The position numbers and the translations under genes are program-made. The notes beneath the pieces were generated by a model. The model worked only from the letters and a program-made list of their open reading frames with translations. It was not told the DNA's origin and searched no databases. Of a stretch of 37,252 nt of DNA, positions 1,369 to 10,471 are shown piece by piece (positions within the stretch are counted from its first letter, which is position 1; every line of letters starts with the position of its first letter). Source of the DNA: a virus (lineage: Duplodnaviria > Heunggongvirae > Uroviricota > Caudoviricetes); the IMG/VR virus record IMGVR_UViG_2529292912_000006, positions 1 to 37,252 of that record. One strand, written 5' to 3'.

Positions 1369-1444
1369 GCCGATATAGCTCAGTTGGTAGAGCAGCGCAT
1401 TCGTAATGCGAAGGTCGTAGGTTCGACTCCTATTATCGGCACCA
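1369..1444 (+). tRNA. thrW: tRNA-Thr (anticodon CGU)
   Basis: 76-nt sequence GCCGATATAGCTCAGTTGGTAGAGCAGCGCATTCGTAATGCGAAGGTCGTAGGTTCGACTCCTATTATCGGCACCA with cloverleaf arms, CGT anticodon in a 7-nt loop, encoded CCA end; an integrase gene starts 15 bp downstream. Confidence 0.92.
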
Positions 1445-5060: not shown

Positions 5061-5423
5061 TTAATGACCTGCTGCGCGGAGTTTTCCGTCAGGTTCACCG
5101 GCAAGAGTCAGTAATTGTCCCTGGTCTTCCTGCAGAATAGTCAGGCGACCACCGCGATTGACATACATCGGCGTTTCGGTGGTGTCTTCTTCGGAAATTT
5201 TCCCGCGGTTAGTCGGGCGAACATATGAGAGTTTGTGTTTGATTTTCACACGGTTCTCATCAAATGGTTCGATTTCTAGGTTGAGTGAGACCTTACCTTT
5301 GGTTTTCGTGTTCATCACACCGGAAGCGACTTCACTGAGAACTGCGCCGATTTTGGTTTCAAATACGCCGCCGTCCAGCTCCCCGATAAATGCCTGCACA
5401 TCAGTACTGCGTTCGCTAGCCAT
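5061..5423 (-). CDS. Hypothetical early protein (YfdP-like), 120 aa from the internal start
   Basis: Internal ATG at 5423 is preceded by GAGGAG with a 6-nt spacer; the track ORF extends to 5453. Confidence 0.5.
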   Translation of the reverse strand: MASERSTDVQAFIGELDGGVFETKIGAVLSEVASGVMNTKTKGKVSLNLEIEPFDENRVKIKHKLSYVRPTNRGKISEEDTTETPMYVNRGGRLTILQEDQGQLLTLAGEPDGKLRAAGH

Positions 5424-5453
5424 TTGCTGCTCCTCATCATATCGACCCTGCAA

Positions 5454-5859
5454 GGCCGATTAGTTTCTCCACAAAACAGAGAAGAACACCTGCGGTGGCA
5501 GCCGCCCGGATGGATTGGGTTATGAGCCCGTCGTCCGGTGATGCTCTTCTCTGTTTTGTAAAAAGGACGGTACCAGCCGGAAGCAAGGGTACAAACTGGT
5601 ACCGCCAGGACTACACACAGCATAAAGTTGTGGTGCCGGGTGCCTCCCGGTGCCTGGCGAAGGTTGCACACCAGACGGGTGGGTATCCACAGAAGGTCGA
5701 CTGTCAGCCTCAACCTTAACCCGCGTGCGCTGAGCCGCATTCACCACAACGCTAAGGATTCTCTTTGGTTGAAAATACTTAGCTGTTATGTGCCTGTCTT
5801 TTCACCACTTCAGGCTCGGTGGTATCCTTTTAAGCCCGTATACATAAAAGGAAAATCAA
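5454..5859. other. GC-rich structured non-coding region (candidate ncRNA or cis-regulatory RNA element)
   Basis: About 400 bp with no protein-like ORF in any frame; 14-bp perfect inverted repeat (5471-5484 with 5546-5559) plus further local hairpins. Confidence 0.3.
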
Positions 5860-6105
5860 ATGACTTTTGATGAAAAAGAACTTGATAATGCAATTAATAA
5901 AATCATCGTAACGTCGCTCTTTTCCTGTCTCAGCGACACTCAGCAGAAACAGTTCTACGAATCGGCTTTCAACATGATCGAGCGTTGTTGTTTCTGCGAT
6001 GCCGACGAGTTACCTGAAAAAATCAGGAAACAGTTGGCTGATGCTCTTCGAGTGCGACTTTCTGACCAATTTTCTGAAATGTGCTCTCCGAATTTGGACA
6101 AATAG
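5860..6105 (+). CDS. Hypothetical small protein (81 aa)
   Basis: Strong SD (AAAGGAAAATCAA-ATG); only plus-strand gene in a minus-strand region; contains a CCFCD motif. Confidence 0.4.
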   Translation: MTFDEKELDNAINKIIVTSLFSCLSDTQQKQFYESAFNMIERCCFCDADELPEKIRKQLADALRVRLSDQFSEMCSPNLDK

Positions 6106-6319
6106 AAAAAGGCCATTTCCATTCAGGGTCTGATGGAAATACTTCAGCCTGTTCCAAAGCACGGCGTAAAGAGAACACAACTCCAGCCATAATCTGATGT
6201 TTCCCATTGGTCCAGCTATCGCCGCTCTGATCTACAGGGGCGGCTATGTCGTATGACCAAACGACTTCACAGTTATTGTTTAAAATCTGGACTTTCATTT
6301 CATACACCTGCTTTAACAT
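6023..6319 (-). CDS. Hypothetical protein (91-98 aa), first gene downstream of putative OL/pL
   Basis: ORF with a possible AGGTG SD before the internal ATG at 6298; its 3' end overlaps the plus-strand 81-aa ORF; coding status uncertain. Confidence 0.3.
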   Translation of the reverse strand: MLKQVYEMKVQILNNNCEVVWSYDIAAPVDQSGDSWTNGKHQIMAGVVFSLRRALEQAEVFPSDPEWKWPFSICPNSESTFQKIGQKVALEEHQPTVS

Positions 6320-6427
6320 GAGTGCCTAGTGGCACAACATGACTCAACGAATCATCCTGGACTTCATATGCCCCAGGCGGCTACTTCGTGGGCGTCCTGC
6401 CTGTTCGTTGTCGTTAAAATAATTCTG

Positions 6428-6463
6428 CTACCAAAAGTAGCAAAAATCAACAACTAAAAGTAG
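6428..6463. promoter_or_regulatory. Putative OL operator pair
   Basis: CTACCAAAAGTAG (6428-6440) and CTAAAAGTAG (6454-6463), 23 bp apart, same motif and spacing as the OR pair at 8367-8402. Confidence 0.4.
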
Positions 6464-6564: not shown

Positions 6565-6590
6565 AGAAAAAAACCGGCATAAAGCCGGTT
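6565..6590 (-). terminator. Intrinsic terminator ending the cI-downstream operon
   Basis: On the minus strand the stop codon is followed by a GC hairpin (CCGGC-loop-GCCGG) and a run of 7 T. Confidence 0.65.
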
Positions 6591-7222
6591 TAGTTTGCTT
6601 TTCCCTGCGGAGGTAATACTTGTGGAGTAATTGGTTCTTGGTTGAGATGTTTAACACTTGATTGTTGTGTAACTGGTTGAACTACTGGCGAAGTATCTTT
6701 AAAAGCAGAAATTATGCTAGGTAATGCAACTATGACCGCAATGATAACTCCAAAAATAGCAAGTCTGGTAGAAATTCCAGATTGAATACCACTAATGGCT
6801 GTATTTATTCCAGTAATTTGGCCTTGTATACCTTCGAATCTACCATTGATGGCCTTCACATCCCCGTCAACACTGTCCATTTTGCCTTCGATTTTCGAAG
6901 AGATAGAATTGATGGCTGAATTTAGAGATGCTAGCTGAACGTTTGTGTTCTCGCGAGATAAAGCCATTTCAACTCTAATAGAGGATGCAATGGACTCCAT
7001 TTCTGCTTTATTGGCAGCTAAAAGTGCTTGAATTTCTTCTCGACTAACTGATGACATTTTATTTCCCCCATCAGTTTTGTAAGTTTCATCTGCGGATTCG
7101 ATAAAATCAGTATACATTTCTTCTATACCGACGCGCAGCCTGTTCTTAACATTGGGGTAAAGGTCACACTTATCAATACCAGATCCACAGTTTGGTACTG
7201 CTCTGAGATAAGGTCGCGTCAT
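6590..7222 (-). CDS. Coiled-coil membrane protein (210 aa), rexB-position gene
   Basis: SD GAGGA before ATG at 7222; heptad-like repeats (…INSISSKIEGKMDSVDGDVKAINGRFEGIQGQITGINTAISGIQSGI…) then hydrophobic helix (LAIFGVIIAVIVALPSIISAF) and Pro/Gln-rich tail; AT-rich. Confidence 0.6.
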   Translation of the reverse strand: MTRPYLRAVPNCGSGIDKCDLYPNVKNRLRVGIEEMYTDFIESADETYKTDGGNKMSSVSREEIQALLAANKAEMESIASSIRVEMALSRENTNVQLASLNSAINSISSKIEGKMDSVDGDVKAINGRFEGIQGQITGINTAISGIQSGISTRLAIFGVIIAVIVALPSIISAFKDTSPVVQPVTQQSSVKHLNQEPITPQVLPPQGKAN

Positions 7223-7240
7223 TTCCCATCCTCTTCTTTT

Positions 7241-7579
7241 TCATTTTTCTTTTTGGATCAATGATCTAGCTTTTTTATAAGAAAAAAGAAGTACATGTGC
7301 ACAGTGATCACAGGTGATTCGAAACAGCGGCATACCACCAGGATAATTTATAGCGCTATCAGTTTCAGGTTTGTATTGGGCATAGCTGAGAACTTCGATT
7401 ACGTGATGTTTTGGCTGATTGTCTTCAACTTCAAGTTCTAGAGTACCGACTACACTCCATGATTGATTTCCGCAAATTTGGCAAATTAAAGGCTTTTTGA
7501 AAGAGTTTATGAAATCAATAAACTCATCTGCAGTGATAATTTCTGAATTTGCTTCGCTATGAAATAGTTCAGATTTCAT
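7241..7579 (-). CDS. Small zinc-ribbon-like protein (112 aa), rexA-position gene
   Basis: AAGGA SD; two Cys pairs (CQIC … CDHC); immediately downstream of the repressor gene on the same strand; AT-rich. Confidence 0.55.
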   Translation of the reverse strand: MKSELFHSEANSEIITADEFIDFINSFKKPLICQICGNQSWSVVGTLELEVEDNQPKHHVIEVLSYAQYKPETDSAINYPGGMPLFRITCDHCAHVLLFSYKKARSLIQKEK

Positions 7580-7623: not shown

Positions 7624-8328
7624 TTACAATCGGTTGTATTTTATAGATTCGTGAATCAACGCCTTGCCCATTACATAAAGCTGATCCTGCGATTTTTCAT
7701 CGATGTACCATTTCTCATAGGCGGGGTTATCCGAAAGAACGGCTAGCTTGTCACCTTGCATTTGAAGACGTTTGACATGAAAAGTCTTACCGTAAACGAA
7801 AGAGTAAACTCCATCAGTCTGGAAGTGACGAACAGAAATGTCGACAAACAGTCGGTCTCCGGAAACGAGTGTAGGGGACATACTATCGCCATTTACAGTC
7901 ATAACCTTAATATCATTCTGAGAACGGTTGCCGAAAAGAGAACGGGCATGTTCTGTTGTGAACTCAATGGCGTAGAGCACATCAACATAGTCTGAAAGCA
8001 TATAGGTCCCAGGTCCTGCGCTAACGCTAAGATCCAAAACTTCTATCCTGTATACATCGGGTTTCGTTGGATTGGGGATGCTTGCCATTTCCTTACATCC
8101 TTCTCTCTCGCCAACACCATATTCTAAATATGAAGCTGATACCCCCAGAGCCAATGCAAGTTTATTCATGACAGAGGCACGAGGCTTCGCAGCGCCGATT
8201 GTGTATCGCCGCGCCATTTCATATGTAACGCCCACAAGACTTTTGAGTTGGGTGACAGAAATTCCCTTGTTTGTCATTAGCTCGTTTAGTCTCTTGGCGA
8301 AATCTGGATACTTCTGTTCTTCTACCAT
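7624..8328 (-). CDS. CI-type prophage repressor (HTH plus S24 LexA-like peptidase domain)
   Basis: HTH (…NELMTNKGISVTQLKSLVGVT…), Ala-Gly cleavage site, GDSM serine motif and VKRL lysine motif. Start set at ATG 8328 because the track start (8385) lies between the two operator repeats; 8364 is also possible. Confidence 0.85.
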   Translation of the reverse strand: MVEEQKYPDFAKRLNELMTNKGISVTQLKSLVGVTYEMARRYTIGAAKPRASVMNKLALALGVSASYLEYGVGEREGCKEMASIPNPTKPDVYRIEVLDLSVSAGPGTYMLSDYVDVLYAIEFTTEHARSLFGNRSQNDIKVMTVNGDSMSPTLVSGDRLFVDISVRHFQTDGVYSFVYGKTFHVKRLQMQGDKLAVLSDNPAYEKWYIDEKSQDQLYVMGKALIHESIKYNRL

Positions 8329-8366
8329 AGGTAGAAGATTACTCACATCACATACACTAGTCATTT

Positions 8367-8426
8367 CTATTTTAAGTAGTTGCATTTTGCTATTTTAAGT
8401 AGCATCATCCCTCTGAATTTCAGAGG
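8367..8426. promoter_or_regulatory. Putative OR operator pair plus palindrome over the cro SD
   Basis: Two identical 13-bp imperfect palindromes CTATTTTAAGTAG at 8367-8379 and 8390-8402 (23 bp apart); 17-bp perfect palindrome CCTCTGAA-T-TTCAGAGG at 8410-8426. Confidence 0.5.
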
Positions 8427-8434
8427 AGAAAGGT

Positions 8435-8698
8435 ATGTCATCTCAAAACTACACAGAGAAAGCAGTAAAGGCTGCGGGAAAATCTTTATCTGAAGTAGCC
8501 CGTCGCTTTGGTTTTAAGTCCACTCAATCCGTCGCTAATTGGGTAATTAACAATCAAGTCCCGTCAGAACGGGTTTTACAACTTTGTGAGTTGGGAAACT
8601 GGTCCGTGACCCCTCATGAACTGCGTCCTGATATTTACCCCAATCCAAATGATGGATTACCTGAGTGCTATTCAAAAGTTAGCGGTTCAGCTGCGTAA
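8435..8698 (+). CDS. Cro-like HTH regulator (YdaS family)
   Basis: Divergent from the repressor; SD GAGGAG; HTH (…LSEVARRFGFKSTQSVANWV…) followed by an …HELRPD… motif typical of YdaS-type Cro analogues. Confidence 0.7.
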   Translation: MSSQNYTEKAVKAAGKSLSEVARRFGFKSTQSVANWVINNQVPSERVLQLCELGNWSVTPHELRPDIYPNPNDGLPECYSKVSGSAA

Positions 8699-8726: not shown

Positions 8727-9311
8727 GTGGGTAAAGAACCTGAATGGAAAGTTGATAAACAACCAGCATGGCTGGTGGCAGCAATACGAAGAACGATTGC
8801 TGATTTACCTCATGGCTATGAGGAAGCAGCAGAAATTCTTGGTTTGTATAAATCTGATGATATCACCCCAGCAAAAGATCAATTGCATAACAGACTGCGT
8901 AGCGGTGGGGATCAAATTTTTCCACTTGAGTGGGCCATGGTTTTACAGGATGCCAGTGGTACCAGGCATGTAACAGATGCAATAGCCCGTCGTAGTAATG
9001 GGGTGTTTGTGCCGCTGGTGGTCATTGATGACATTGACAATGGTGACATTAATCAGCGGCTGATGGAGTCAATAGAATGGATTGGCAAGCATTCCCAGTA
9101 CTTACGCAAGGCAACTGCTGATGGAGTTATTGACCAGGCTGAGCGTGAGCAAATCGAAGAGAACAGCTACCAAGTAATGGCGAAGTGGCAGGAGCATTTA
9201 ACACTGTTATTTCGTGTTTTTTGTGCACCGGAAAAGAGTAACGCCCGCGAGTGTGCAGCTCCGGGCGTCGTGGCGTCGATTGCTTCTGGTTGTGGAGAAA
9301 CTAACGCATGA
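8727..9311 (+). CDS. CII-analogue regulatory protein (YdaT-like), GTG start
   Basis: In-frame GTG at 8727 preceded by GAGGA; position directly after Cro; family assignment is memory-based. Confidence 0.45.
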   Translation: MGKEPEWKVDKQPAWLVAAIRRTIADLPHGYEEAAEILGLYKSDDITPAKDQLHNRLRSGGDQIFPLEWAMVLQDASGTRHVTDAIARRSNGVFVPLVVIDDIDNGDINQRLMESIEWIGKHSQYLRKATADGVIDQAEREQIEENSYQVMAKWQEHLTLLFRVFCAPEKSNARECAAPGVVASIASGCGETNA

Positions 9312-9913
9312 ACAGTTTAACGGCAAATAACCGTTTGTCGCAACAGCTGGTGGTCAGCGTCGCTGAACACCTGTTGTTACGGCATGAATGCAGATTACCA
9401 AATCACCTGGCTGTAAGTAACCACAGAGAACTTTACCTGACTGTGGGGGGCGAGTTGTGCAGGAACTTAACCGCTGGTTTCGTGACGGAAGAGGGCTTTA
9501 TGTCCATGTTATTCGTTGGGAGCCAGAAACACAGCGCGTTATCTATCTTCGCAAAGACTACCCGCATGAGTGCTTTAGTCCTTTGTGGAAATTCAGGCGT
9601 GATTTTGTTGAGTGTGAAGGACCACCAGCACATTGATTCTGCCATTCCGGGACGTTACACTGTTCAGGCACCTTATAAAGCGGGTGCCGGGATTGGCGTC
9701 CTGAAATTGATTACTGAGCATAACCGCGCTCATGCGGTTTTTTCGTGTCATGAGCATTGCTACGCCCAAATTATGGTGGGGCGTACAGGGCCGACTTCGG
9801 TCGGGCCGGGTTCGGTAGTCTCCGGTAACGCCAACCCTGTACGTCTCACCACCTCTGTGATTGGCGTCCCATGTGGTGAGTTTTCTGAAAAACTGACTAC
9901 CGGGGCTGTCACC
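9308..9913 (+). other. Open frame upstream of the Rha domain with uncertain coding status (possible frameshifted or overlapping gene)
   Basis: ATGA-coupled start at 9308; translation is low-complexity and atypical; an alternative frame (9457-9636, GTG start) encodes a more protein-like 59-aa peptide; G6 run at 9445-9450 sits at the frame junction. Confidence 0.3.
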
Positions 9914-10471
9914 ATGACTACTCTCCCAACCCTCTCTCAACCTGAAATTGCCATCGTTGATGGTCAGGCTGTTACATCTTCTTTGGCTGTTGCTGACTTC
10001 TTCTCTAAACGTCATGACGATGTTCTGAAAAAGATCCGCATTTTGGATTGTTCTCCAGAGTTTTGTGCCCGCAATTTTGCGGAGACATCAATTTTGGTAC
10101 ACCAGCCCAACGGCGGTACTCGCAAACTTCCTTGCTACCACATCACCCGCGACGGCTTCGCGTTCCTGGCAATGGGCTTCACTGGCAAACGTGCTGCCCA
10201 GTTCAAAGAGGCATACATCAATGCCTTTAACCAGATGGAGAAACAGCTTTCAAAGCCCTCTGTACCGAGCGACGTTGCACATAACGCCAGCGTTCTCTAT
10301 TCCTACATTTCATCAATTCATCAGGTCTGGTTGCAGCAGCTTTATCCCATGCTGGAAAAAGCTGAATCACCGCTGGCTGTAAGTCTGTATGACCGAATTA
10401 ACGATGCGGCATTTCTTGCCCGTCTTATTCATTCGTCGCTGAACTCTTCAGAGGTAAGGGGGCGCAAATGA
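9914..10471 (+). CDS. Rha-family phage regulatory protein / antirepressor
   Basis: From ATG 9914 the protein begins directly with the Rha-type N-terminal domain (…EIAIVDGQAVTSSLAVADFFSKRHDDVLKKIR…YHITRDGFAFLAMGFTGKRAAQFKEAYINAFNQME…). Confidence 0.7.
   Translation: MTTLPTLSQPEIAIVDGQAVTSSLAVADFFSKRHDDVLKKIRILDCSPEFCARNFAETSILVHQPNGGTRKLPCYHITRDGFAFLAMGFTGKRAAQFKEAYINAFNQMEKQLSKPSVPSDVAHNASVLYSYISSIHQVWLQQLYPMLEKAESPLAVSLYDRINDAAFLARLIHSSLNSSEVRGRK

Follow-up and report, generated by a model that had tools for sequence, protein, structure and literature searches.

A probable, unannotated prophage small-RNA gene with an STnc100-type scaffold and an RprA-like seed in a leftward early operon

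We find that the GC-rich, ORF-free stretch at positions 5454-5859 of the window (the entire 37,252-nucleotide phage sequence analysed here, IMG/VR record IMGVR_UViG_2529292912_000006) is a genuine non-coding unit on the minus strand. It is most likely an unannotated prophage small-RNA gene, and the whole region is read as RNA in the sense of the leftward early operon. The explanation that we favour overall, and hold with moderate confidence, is an sRNA gene of about 190 nt (5751 to 5562, minus strand) followed by a separate hairpin in the yfdP leader. This gene consists of a conserved and pseudoknotted 5' scaffold, a short unpaired seed that copies the 5' end of processed RprA, and an intrinsic terminator. 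Most likely, this unit acts in trans, probably with Hfq, and doubles as the tL terminator of the operon.

Coding status, strand, and prevalence of the region

The original prediction described a GC-rich stretch with no convincing reading frame, and both observations hold. GC content is 0.53-0.58 over positions 5400-5800, compared with 0.38-0.48 in the flanks. Among homologues, variable sites in each of the three ORFs of the region are spread evenly over the codon positions (31:36:35, 15:19:17, and 37:36:36). Two of these ORFs contain 21-29 indel sites and the third contains 2. For comparison, the neighbouring yfdP gene has a ratio of 3:5:31 and no indels. Neither the third-position excess nor the freedom from frame-breaking indels seen for yfdP was found among homologues of the region, and a Pfam search of the region's ORFs returned nothing.

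Note that the record inspected carries only a PGAP label, 'frameshifted hypothetical protein', over positions 5437-5747, and that ORFs on both strands match PHROG families (phrog_3651, E 8e-50, and phrog_33599, E 1e-15). These calls would suit a decayed or unconventional protein-coding gene, either the PGAP pseudogene or a plus-strand ORF at 5495-5719, with the palindromes being incidental. We consider this extremely improbable. The PHROG matches lie on opposite strands of the same DNA, as expected of conserved non-coding DNA called as ORFs. Furthermore, the translations are rich in Arg, Cys, Trp, and Pro, and the helices described below covary at the RNA level. Given the flat variation, the indels, and the absence of Pfam matches, we interpret the PGAP and PHROG calls as marking conserved DNA and no gene. 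A further plus-strand ORF (5860-6105), which starts beside a conserved upstream module described below, also lacks third-position bias (3:7:6), with few variable sites, and was set aside.

A structured RNA, rather than a spacer, had also been proposed, and the Rfam, folding, and covariation checks all agree with this. The 296-nt minus-strand RNA from 5850 to 5555 folds more stably than its shuffled versions (z = -3.71). For the sRNA alone, the z-score is -1.77 and the plus strand gives a similar value of -1.64; hence, stability of the sRNA alone is uninformative and cannot tell the strands apart. The original prediction named no strand, and three other observations assign the minus strand. First, covariance-model matches are confined to it. 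Second, G.U pairs are present in P4, P0, and the long hairpin. Third, only on this strand is the terminator hairpin followed by a U-tract. Matching DNA is found in 2785 of 5426 complete E. coli genomes, and at least 80% of the region is present in 1814.

Scaffold, seed, and terminator

At gathering thresholds, an Rfam search of the whole window identified only tRNA, C4, and isrK, and left the region empty. Below threshold, STnc100 matched the minus strand from 5772 to 5557 (39.5 bits, E 4.6e-7, against a gathering threshold of 47 bits). Of six phages scanned, four (ST64B, 118970_sal3, phiES15, and a Klebsiella phage) also have a sub-threshold STnc100 match in this slot. A custom covariance model, R1, has a single match in the window (80.9 bits, 5753 to 5625), the window sequence being part of its training set. 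The Klebsiella-phage homologue, on which R1 was not trained, scores 65.8 bits.

The STnc100-type scaffold has five helices and occupies 5627-5750 of the minus strand. Closing helix P1 pairs 5742-5750 with 5627-5635, P2 lies at 5723-5738, and a pseudoknot joins 5711-5717 to 5660-5666. P4 pairs 5669-5676 with 5652-5659. The palindrome CCGGGTGCCTCCCGG at 5636-5650, already noticed in the original prediction, is real and corresponds to the invariant P5 hairpin. Across 33 sequences, 80.3% of scaffold cells pair, compared with 71.2% after shuffling and 40-47% with slid partners. The covariation score is 0.269, against 0.128, and none of 500 shuffles scored as high. At three P2 pairs, both sides have changed in 8-10 sequences, and P1 covaries, GUUGCGGUG with CACCGCAAC. 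For the pseudoknot, 35 distinct duplexes were seen. The mean complementary run is 5.48 nt with the own partner, compared with 3.66 (sd 0.14) when partners are permuted, and 0 of 20000 permutations reach the observed value. The covariation supports the scaffold, including a pseudoknot that the Rfam STnc100 structure lacks.

The scaffold is modular. About 60 different 3' tails are found behind a single scaffold, and a terminator follows most of them. In some relatives, the scaffold is followed directly by a Shine-Dalgarno sequence and ATG, with no terminator between.

In the window, the tail between P1 and the terminator contains the sequence UGCUGUGUGUAGUC (5609-5622, minus strand), predicted by folding to be largely unpaired. 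Alignment with K-12 rprA shows that these 14 nt are identical, as is ACAAC just upstream. The processed, active form of RprA consists of its last 47 nt (PMC9262595). Counted on the K-12 sequence, it begins with AAUUGCUGUGUGUAGUC, and the seed is identical to its start. The same motif, with one substitution in ST64B, recurs before three different terminators, of the SfV, ST64B, and phiES15 types. Matches to the Rfam RprA model were absent from the window at E of 10 or below, and the phiES15 homologue scored 41 bits against that model (RF00034), where the threshold is 70. With the 3' half of the phiES15 homologue as query, blastn against E. coli genomes did not retrieve rprA, which was compared directly instead. 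Within the phage, 6 potential seed targets with three or fewer mismatches were found, compared with 2.7 expected, which is not significant. One candidate seed site in the phage covers codons 5-9 of cro (8447-8460).

Immediately downstream is an intrinsic terminator (5560-5604, minus strand). It has a hairpin with perfect 9-bp arms at 5568-5604, extending to as many as 13 bp in the fold, followed by five U residues at 5560-5564. The arms, CGGTACCAG (5568-5576) and CTGGTACCG (5596-5604), form the GGTACC-centred palindrome that had been pointed out without a role; we conclude that it is the sRNA terminator. The element closes the sRNA at its 3' end and also serves as a tL-type terminator of the operon. 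Two features expected of an Hfq-dependent, trans-acting sRNA are present: a Rho-independent terminator that ends in a U-tail and, next to it, a seed predicted to be largely unpaired. A tract of five U residues is short for a typical Hfq-dependent sRNA.

We suggest that the RNA base-pairs in trans, probably with the help of Hfq, with transcripts recognised by the 3' half of RprA. With its processed-RprA seed, the common SfV-type allele may let a prophage feed into the host Rcs/RprA regulon. In cis, the same terminator is the first strong stop of the leftward early operon, insulating yfdP, yfdQ, yfdR, xis, and int. Expression of this allele, its dependence on Hfq, and its targets are our inferences.

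Operon context, upstream elements, and the yfdP leader

A probable pL promoter (TTGATT-17-CAGAAT), recognised from its sequence, lies at 6419-6447 on the minus strand with an operator palindrome, GCTACCAAAAGTAGC (6427-6441). The same palindrome, with one mismatch, is at 8389-8403, between a cI-like gene (7624-8385, minus strand) and a cro-like gene (8435-8698, plus strand). The structured region lies 570-850 nt downstream of the pL promoter and operator. Ahead of P1, no convincing sigma-70 promoter was found; there is a weak -10-like GAGAAT, 5-6 nt before the likely sRNA start, with no consensus promoter. The RNA could arise in two ways: transcription may start weakly inside the operon, at the first scaffold helix, or pL transcripts ending at the terminator may be processed.

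Conserved RNA elements lie upstream of the scaffold. Module C (5783-5837) also adjoins the scaffold in Salmonella and Klebsiella phages, where it is 94-96% identical, and 82% identical in Cronobacter phiES15. It includes a hairpin, GCCUG...CAGGC (5792-5815, minus strand), whose stem covaries to GCCGG/CCGGC in other contigs. Acceptable sigma-70 hexamers are absent from module C on either strand, and we rejected it as a promoter. Element X, CAUAAC (5785-5790), is able to pair with GUUGUG, the 5' strand of P1 (element Y). Where Y changes to GUUGCG, X becomes CGUAAC or CGCAAC and the 3' strand of P1 becomes CACCGCAAC; these changes were read by eye from the listed sequences. The P0 hairpin, GCUAAGUAUU/GAAUCCUUAGC, occupies 5751-5783 of the minus strand and was recovered as an inverted repeat. 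In other phages, its strands enclose much longer inserts and still pair, via G.U pairs. Elements between 5815 and 5751 can compete with the closing helix by pairing with the first strand of the scaffold. Conservation of X, P0, and module C, together with the X/Y/Z competition, hints at a role in cis or a longer RNA. A long-range pairing between X and the seed, seen in the minimum free energy fold, is lost where the seed differs, for instance in the L058 type, and is not relied on.

These elements bear on an alternative, in which the scaffold and upstream sequences are a cis-acting pL leader, working as a conformational switch or as a processive antiterminator of the put kind. Such a leader would govern read-through at 5604 to 5560 into yfdP...int, with the discrete sRNA being a by-product, like the short 6S and StxS transcripts at tR'. 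We judge this unlikely, though it has several points in its favour. The element is within the pL transcript, just before the first strong terminator, and the scaffold, with its pseudoknot, is far more structured and conserved than the usual sRNA 5' domain. The X, Y, and Z helices are mutually exclusive and covary. In other contigs, the leader starts about 100 nt past a promoter with an operator palindrome, and some copies sit directly before a gene with the terminator absent. We found no N-like protein; Pfam gives no match for orf33, and the SfIV paper, in its passages on antitermination, names only Q. Resemblances to lambda-type nut sites in the region are only loose (GGGCUUAAAAG; GCCUGAAG...CAGGC). 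We did not adopt boxA as the main explanation of GUGCUCU(Y)U, which precedes P1 in relatives; this stretch is the 3' strand of P0 and complementary to AGAGCA(Y) upstream.

Conversely, the R1 search found no second copy in the window's pR operon. The immunity region of HK022 (putL, putR), scanned with both the Rfam STnc100 model and R1, gave no match, and we rejected a put-like identity. The scaffold and terminator stem lack the overlap that a classical attenuator would need, and the conserved RprA-like seed would have no role. Finally, each canonical family member has a promoter and terminator to itself and builds up as a separate, Hfq-bound sRNA (PasD), and a prophage homologue, sRNA-17, ends at the terminator.

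A combined scheme is doubtful, in our estimation. Here, the scaffold and X/P0 would form a bistable leader that decides, in lambdoid phages without N (SfV, ST64B, and mEp460 types), whether transcription passes the first pL terminator, and the RNA ending there would mimic processed RprA. If so, one RNA would couple early-gene antitermination to hijack of a host envelope-stress sRNA regulon and, as a corollary, the RprA 3' module and the phage modules would share ancestry. Either way, the terminator raises the question of how N-less lambdoid phages pass a stop ahead of yfdP...xis-int. We continue to favour a trans-acting sRNA with a terminator that also serves the operon.

Past that terminator is the most prominent inverted repeat of the region. 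The original prediction was correct in the perfect 14-nt arms (5471-5484 and 5546-5559), and in reading them as structured RNA, though not in the 46-nt loop; 61 nt separate the perfect arms. Nor is the repeat part of the sRNA, as it forms a separate hairpin. The arms extend to 25 nt with 84% complementarity (5471-5495 and 5535-5559), leaving 39 nt between them. The structure (5462-5559, minus strand) is a Y-shaped hairpin with a 25-bp stem and two small side hairpins, and the terminator U-tract can lengthen its base (to 5564-5462). The segment from 5566 to 5424 folds with -61.6 kcal/mol (z = -5.75), and none of 200 shuffles folds as well. The hairpin persists in six sequence variants, through replacement of G-C by A-U, substitutions involving G.U, and covariation in a side hairpin. 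The remaining leader (5424-5461) has a small hairpin (5442-5459) and a Shine-Dalgarno sequence, GAGGAG (5430-5435), with the yfdP ATG at 5423, as placed by the PGAP and SfV annotations. The Y-shaped hairpin would form only in read-through transcripts. We propose that it most likely serves RNA processing or stability, for instance as an RNase III site.

Could the palindromes work as DNA, in the form of regulator or recombinase binding sites or a cruciform, rather than as RNA? Perfect 14-bp arms would suit a protein site. In addition, P0 and X are just upstream of the mapped sRNA-17 5' end, and ArcA is reported on the sRNA-17 promoter fragment (PMC7719688). However, stems change in sequence while pairing stays. 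Helices in P4, P0 variants, and the long hairpin are kept via G.U pairs, which are A-C mismatches on the other strand, and the P0 strands stay complementary across inserts of very different length. We regard a DNA-level role as quite improbable.

Relation to known systems

The closest described RNA by position is sRNA-17, from an mEp460-type prophage of E. coli K1 RS218. This is a 193-nt RNA defined by 5'/3' RACE and Northern blot (Front Microbiol 2020, PMC7719688). We located it via mEp460 and the paper's primer table; the 1152-nt RS218 interval equals mEp460 interval 1072-2222. The primers start at CGTTGTGGTGAATGCG, also the start of the 'full length' primer, and stop at the U-tract that follows the GGTACC hairpin (PMC7719688). 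Hence, the ends of sRNA-17 coincide exactly with the scaffold start and terminator U-tract of the mEp460 homologue, the 5' end having its counterpart at position 5751, and a discrete RNA is made from the mEp460-type homologue. Published RNA-seq has only 4 reads for sRNA-17 in LB (PMC7719688). The two loci share the slot and strand, directly upstream of yfdP and between yfdP and the repressor. The RNAs are similar in length (193 and about 190 nt) and identical over the first 17 nt (CGUUGUGGUGAAUGCG...). Their terminators and downstream hairpins are nearly the same (97% identity over 5300-5607). Identity does not extend over all 193 nt of sRNA-17; conservation covers the first ~17 and last ~50 nt only. 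The core has diverged (28 bits against R1), P2 and P5 are different, and the seed, AGCCACUGCUUUGG, is not RprA-like. Since seed and core differ, and RACE and Northern ends are known for the RS218 allele only, expression of the SfV-type allele is an extrapolation. The authors reported no Rfam relative of sRNA-17 (PMC7719688); the link to STnc100 and PasD is therefore made in the present analysis.

With STnc100 (RF02076), PasD1, and PasD2, the region shares a UGGUG/CACCA closing helix, an AAU junction, P2 with a bulged A, P4, and the invariant hairpin CCGGGAGGCACCCGG, then CACCA. A variable unpaired tail, an intrinsic terminator, and a prophage location are also in common. P5 and most of P1 have the same sequence as in canonical STnc100 copies, and P2 and P4 pair through compensatory changes. 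Indeed, P2 is fully swapped, from CCCCC/GG(A)GGG to GCGGC/GC(A)CGC. Canonical copies with the invariant P5 motif score 69-132 bits, while the region is below the 47-bit threshold. They occur, according to the literature, in the late region near Q, stx, and an esterase gene, and adjoin tRNA genes in several contigs; here, the location is the leftward early operon past pL. Their promoter, TTGACA-17-TAAATT, ends about 7 nt before P1, where none abuts P1 in the window, which has X, P0, and module C upstream in addition. Within the family, Hfq binding and target regulation are known for PasD only (RIL-seq and Northern blot).

The resemblance to RprA is local. Both RNAs have ACAAC, 5 nt, and then UGCUGUGUGUAGUC, directly before the terminator, and RprA has 19 nt in common with the phiES15 homologue, plus a GCCC...GGGC terminator. 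RprA has no scaffold, and R1 finds nothing in the rprA locus. It also differs from the sRNA unit in genomic context, promoter, and 5' half.

As with HK022 put and lambda nutL/tL1, the pL transcript contains a structured RNA before a terminator, and the phage has no recognisable N. The put RNAs differ in architecture, being about 70 nt, with two stem-loops, and lying in both early operons, downstream of pL and pR (PMC9378689). The boxA/boxB pair and N homologue that go with lambda nutL were not found.

DicF, from the dicB operon of the Qin prophage, is an sRNA inside a repressor-controlled immediate-early operon, upstream of a kil/dicB-type gene, and is released from the operon transcript. The region is alike in operon position, and the 5' arm of its terminator resembles DicF (GGCGGUACCAGUUU against GGCGGUAUCAGUUU, 15.7 bits), though the match is not significant (E 1.3) and size and structure differ.

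We place the region in a prophage RNA superfamily, as a relative of all three of its named members. STnc100 (Salmonella, Rfam), PasD (EPEC, RIL-seq), and sRNA-17 (meningitis E. coli) appear to form this one superfamily, in which the pseudoknotted scaffold is conserved and the seeds can be swapped.

Prophage setting and coding potential

The window is a lambdoid, SfV-like prophage. At its left end is a tRNA-Thr gene (anticodon CGU; 1369-1444, plus strand), which is probably the attachment-site tRNA; the integrase region is close by. The segment 5424-5859 matches Shigella phage SfV at 100% identity, and its identity with several E. coli and Shigella phages is 96-98%. Its neighbours are yfdP (minus strand; start codon ATG at 5423) and orf33 (6023-6319, minus strand; phrog_3195). 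The window also encodes a cI-like repressor (7624-8385, minus strand), whose operon ends at a strong terminator (6588 to 6565, minus strand), and a cro-like gene (8435-8698, plus strand). A promoter-like sequence, TTGATT-17-CAGAAT (about 6447 to 6419, minus strand), contains the perfect palindrome GCTACCAAAAGTAGC (6427-6441). Since this recurs, with one mismatch, between cI and cro (8389-8403), the sequence at 6419-6447 is a putative pL/OL. If so, pL would be 570-850 nt upstream of the region of interest, which would be read in the same sense as the leftward early operon.

Two further loci are noted here. Between the repressor gene and the 6588-6565 terminator, in the position of lambda rexAB, are two minus-strand ORFs (6590-7579). 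One encodes a Cys/His-rich protein of 112 aa (phrog_4293) and the other a 210 aa coiled-coil protein with a C-terminal hydrophobic segment (phrog_5820). These could be lysogen-expressed exclusion or defence genes. At 9668-9856 (plus strand), an isrK Hfq-binding RNA (59 bits) immediately precedes a C4 antisense RNA (82 bits). The 5' portion of a long ORF (9308-10471) with an antirepressor-like end overlaps the two RNAs. The arrangement resembles a module of the P1/P7 immunity-I type, or of the Gifsy isrK-anrP type, within an SfV-like prophage.

The original prediction described 5454-5859 as GC-rich and without a convincing protein-coding frame. Both statements hold. GC content is 0.53-0.58, compared to 0.38-0.48 in the flanks. 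In three ORFs of the region, no codon position is favoured among the variable sites (31:36:35, 15:19:17, and 37:36:36; 42-71 distinct homologous sequences), and there are 21-29 indel sites in two of these ORFs and 2 in the third. For yfdP, the equivalent figures are 3:5:31 and no indels. A Pfam search of the region gave no match. Given the flat codon positions, the indels, and the Pfam result, a protein-coding role is barely credible. Note that PGAP annotates a 'frameshifted hypothetical protein' here, and that PHROG families match both strands of the same DNA. Both are expected from conserved non-coding DNA that some records have called as ORFs.

An STnc100-type scaffold on the minus strand

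A permissive Rfam scan returned one meaningful match: STnc100 (RF02076), on the minus strand from 5772 to 5557, at 39.5 bits (E 4.6e-7), which is below the Rfam threshold of 47 bits. In Salmonella ST64B and 118970_sal3, in Cronobacter phiES15, and in one Klebsiella phage, the corresponding slot also has an STnc100 match below threshold. From IMG/VR, scans with two exact motifs recovered 153 distinct copies, reduced to 47 representatives at no more than 90% identity. Some copies, which we call canonical, are genuine Rfam STnc100 (69-132 bits), often in tandem arrays adjoining phage tRNA genes. Their promoter, TTGACA-17-TAAATT, ends about 7 nt before the first helix. The arrays hold 2-4 copies with differing 3' tails (L131 2265-3380; L135 342-1038; L130, L137, L158, and L181). 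Each array copy examined has its own sigma-70 promoter, and phage tRNA genes adjoin in several of the contigs.

The scaffold comprises helices P1, P2, P4, and P5, plus a pseudoknot (5750 to 5627, minus strand). In a 33-sequence alignment, 80.3% of cells were pairing, compared to 71.2% after shuffling and 40-47% with partners slid. The covariation score was 0.269 versus 0.128, and 0 of 500 shuffles scored as high. P2 was 97.6% paired, with three pairs changed on both sides in 8-10 sequences; CCCCC/GG(A)GGG becomes GCGGC/GC(A)CGC in the window type. Because the P5 motif served as a search query, P5 invariance in the alignment is partly by construction. Among copies retrieved with the P2 motif, the P5 stem also shows no variation, its loop is variable, and P1 covaries (GUUGCGGUG/CACCGCAAC). 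Window-type scaffolds with this P1, in the L043, L050, L052, and L079 group (IMG/VR), are directly followed by a Shine-Dalgarno sequence and ATG, with no terminator. Hence, in some phages, the scaffold seems to serve as the leader of an mRNA.

A covariance model built from the scaffold alignment found one copy in the window (5753 to 5625), a sequence in the training set, and scored 65.8 bits on a Klebsiella phage outside that set. It found no match in the pR operon of the window, in HK022, or at the rprA locus.

The P4 loop is complementary to the segment that follows P2, giving a pseudoknot missing from the Rfam structure line. In the window, AAGGUUG (5717 to 5711) pairs with CAACCUU (5666 to 5660) on the minus strand. 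Relatives have AAGGCUG/CAGCCUU, UGGUUAA/UUAACCA, UGGUUAG/CUAACCA, AGACUGACAAA/UUUGUCAGUCU, CCAGUC/GACUGG, CCAGCCA/UGGCUGG, and more; there are 35 distinct duplexes in total. The mean Watson-Crick run is 5.48 nt with the true partner and 3.66 (sd 0.14) with permuted partners, and 0 of 20000 permutations reached the observed sum. This pseudoknot appears to be a new observation.

A structured RNA, perhaps a prophage sRNA, had been predicted here. The covarying helices, pseudoknot, family match, and a RACE-mapped homologue described below all support this. We conclude that the sRNA unit is a non-coding, minus-strand, unannotated allele of a prophage sRNA superfamily. About one in three complete E. 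coli genomes carries the allele.

Structures flanking the sRNA unit

Upstream of the scaffold, a block at 5783-5837 (module C) is conserved at 82-96%, adjacent to the scaffold, in phages of four genera. Within it, on the minus strand, is a hairpin, GCCUG...CAGGC (5815 to 5792), with a stem that covaries to GCCGG/CCGGC in relatives. Immediately 5' of P1 is a second hairpin, P0 (GCUAAGUAUU/GAAUCCUUAGC; 5783 to 5751, minus strand). The two strands of P0 flank far longer inserts in relatives, with pairing kept, partly by G.U. Element X, CAUAAC (5790 to 5785, minus strand), can pair with Y, the P1 5' strand. Sequences with GUUGCG in place of GUUGUG as Y have CGUAAC or CGCAAC as X and CACCGCAAC as the P1 3' strand. 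Therefore, as read from these sequences, two mutually exclusive helices (X:Y and P1) seem to be maintained. The competing upstream helix also appears to be new.

X, P0, and the upstream hairpin would be outside any RNA starting at 5751, and are relevant solely as promoter DNA or in transcripts that read through from pL. They are our chief grounds for retaining a cis-acting model, a put-like or switch-type antitermination leader, though we consider it unlikely. Module C also adjoins a plus-strand ORF (5860-6105; 81 aa, phrog_3311) with a good Shine-Dalgarno sequence and a convergent 83-nt overlap with orf33. Variable sites are 6:5:14 in orf33, a third-position bias, and 3:7:6, without bias, in the plus-strand ORF. 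In L013 and L004 contig types, unrelated plus-strand ORF starts with Shine-Dalgarno sequences adjoin module C too. The site may be a slot for antisense cargo genes.

The palindromes originally listed are all present. The inverted repeat among them, downstream of the sRNA terminator, is the 25-bp stem of a Y-shaped hairpin (5564 to 5462, minus strand; -61.6 kcal/mol, z = -5.75) with two small side hairpins. Its loop, given as 46 nt, is actually 61 nt (14-nt perfect arms) or 39 nt (extended 25-nt arms). Six sequence variants keep the hairpin, with a G-C to A-U exchange and several interchanges of G.U with G-C or U.G that on the plus strand would give A-C mismatches. One side hairpin changes from GCGG/CCGC to GCUG/CAGC to CUGUGG/CCACAG. 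Since helices are kept through G.U pairs, a purely DNA-level role for the palindromes is very improbable. Among phages examined, the hairpin accompanies yfdP-type genes (SfV, mEp460, ST64B, and phiNP types); no match was found in phiES15 or the Klebsiella phage, in both of which the scaffold is followed by kil. Without a U-tract of its own, it is ruled out as a terminator. It may act in the yfdP leader as an element for processing or stability, such as an RNase III site, and this is the least supported step of our reading.

Terminator, seed and known sRNAs

An intrinsic terminator, consisting of CGGUACCAG...CUGGUACCG (5604 to 5568, minus strand) and then UCCUUUUU, lies about 22 nt beyond P1. 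Its 5' arm, GGCGGUACCAGUUU, resembles the DicF terminator arm, GGCGGUAUCAGUUU. As the Rfam DicF score is only 15.7 bits (5565-5619, minus strand), the likeness is probably coincidental.

A homologue, sRNA-17, has been mapped in the mEp460-type prophage of E. coli K1 RS218. This 193-nt RNA was mapped by 5'/3' RACE, was also visible on a Northern blot, and is more abundant in stationary phase (PMC7719688). Note that RACE does not show the 5' end to be a primary start. The 1152-nt 'intergenic region' of RS218 (PMC7719688) equals the mEp460 interval from the yfdQ-like gene to the repressor. The 'full length' primers, CGTTGTGGTGAATGCGCAGGC... and the complement of ...CCGGCTGGTACCGCTCTTTT (PMC7719688), correspond exactly to the P1 start and terminator U-tract of the mEp460 homologue. 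By homology, the window sRNA unit would run from 5751 to 5562 (about 190 nt), and the window allele is presumably expressed. In LB, sRNA-17 had only 4 mapped RNA-seq reads (PMC7719688). Deleting it raised yfdP 95-fold (PMC7719688), but transcription running out of the inserted cassette may account for this, and the result carries no weight in our reading.

Between P1 and the terminator is the seed, UGCUGUGUGUAGUC (5622 to 5609, minus strand), predicted to be largely unpaired. K-12 RprA has the identical sequence at the equivalent place, directly before its terminator, and in both RNAs ACAAC is 5 nt upstream. By simple calculation, about 6e-5 shared 14-mers are expected between a 190-nt RNA and one 105-nt sRNA. 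The phiES15 homologue has AUUGCUGUGUGUAGUCUUU and a GCCC...GGGC terminator in common with RprA, and reaches 41 bits with the Rfam RprA model, for which the threshold is 70 bits. ST64B has UUGCUGUGUGAAGUCUU before a third, unrelated terminator. The biologically active RprA is a processed form that consists of the last 47 nt (PMC9262595); by our count on the K-12 sequence, this starts with AAUUGCUGUGUGUAGUC. Judged on sequence, the window allele may mimic processed RprA. Hfq dependence and targets of the sRNA unit we likewise infer. The RprA-type seed appears to be a new observation.

In the cro-like gene, 8 nt (ACUACACA) within codons 5-9 (8447-8460, plus strand) are perfectly complementary to the seed. 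Including this site, 11-of-14 matches in the phage numbered 6, compared to 2.7 expected, which is not significant.

The sRNA-17 of RS218 differs from the window allele: its core has diverged (28 bits with our covariance model) and its seed is different. Its authors found no Rfam relative (PMC7719688), and the link to STnc100 and PasD is drawn here. PasD and STnc100 were previously remarked to share structure and differ in their seeds. This agrees with the variety that we see across the family, where one scaffold comes with about 60 different tails and a terminator follows most of these.
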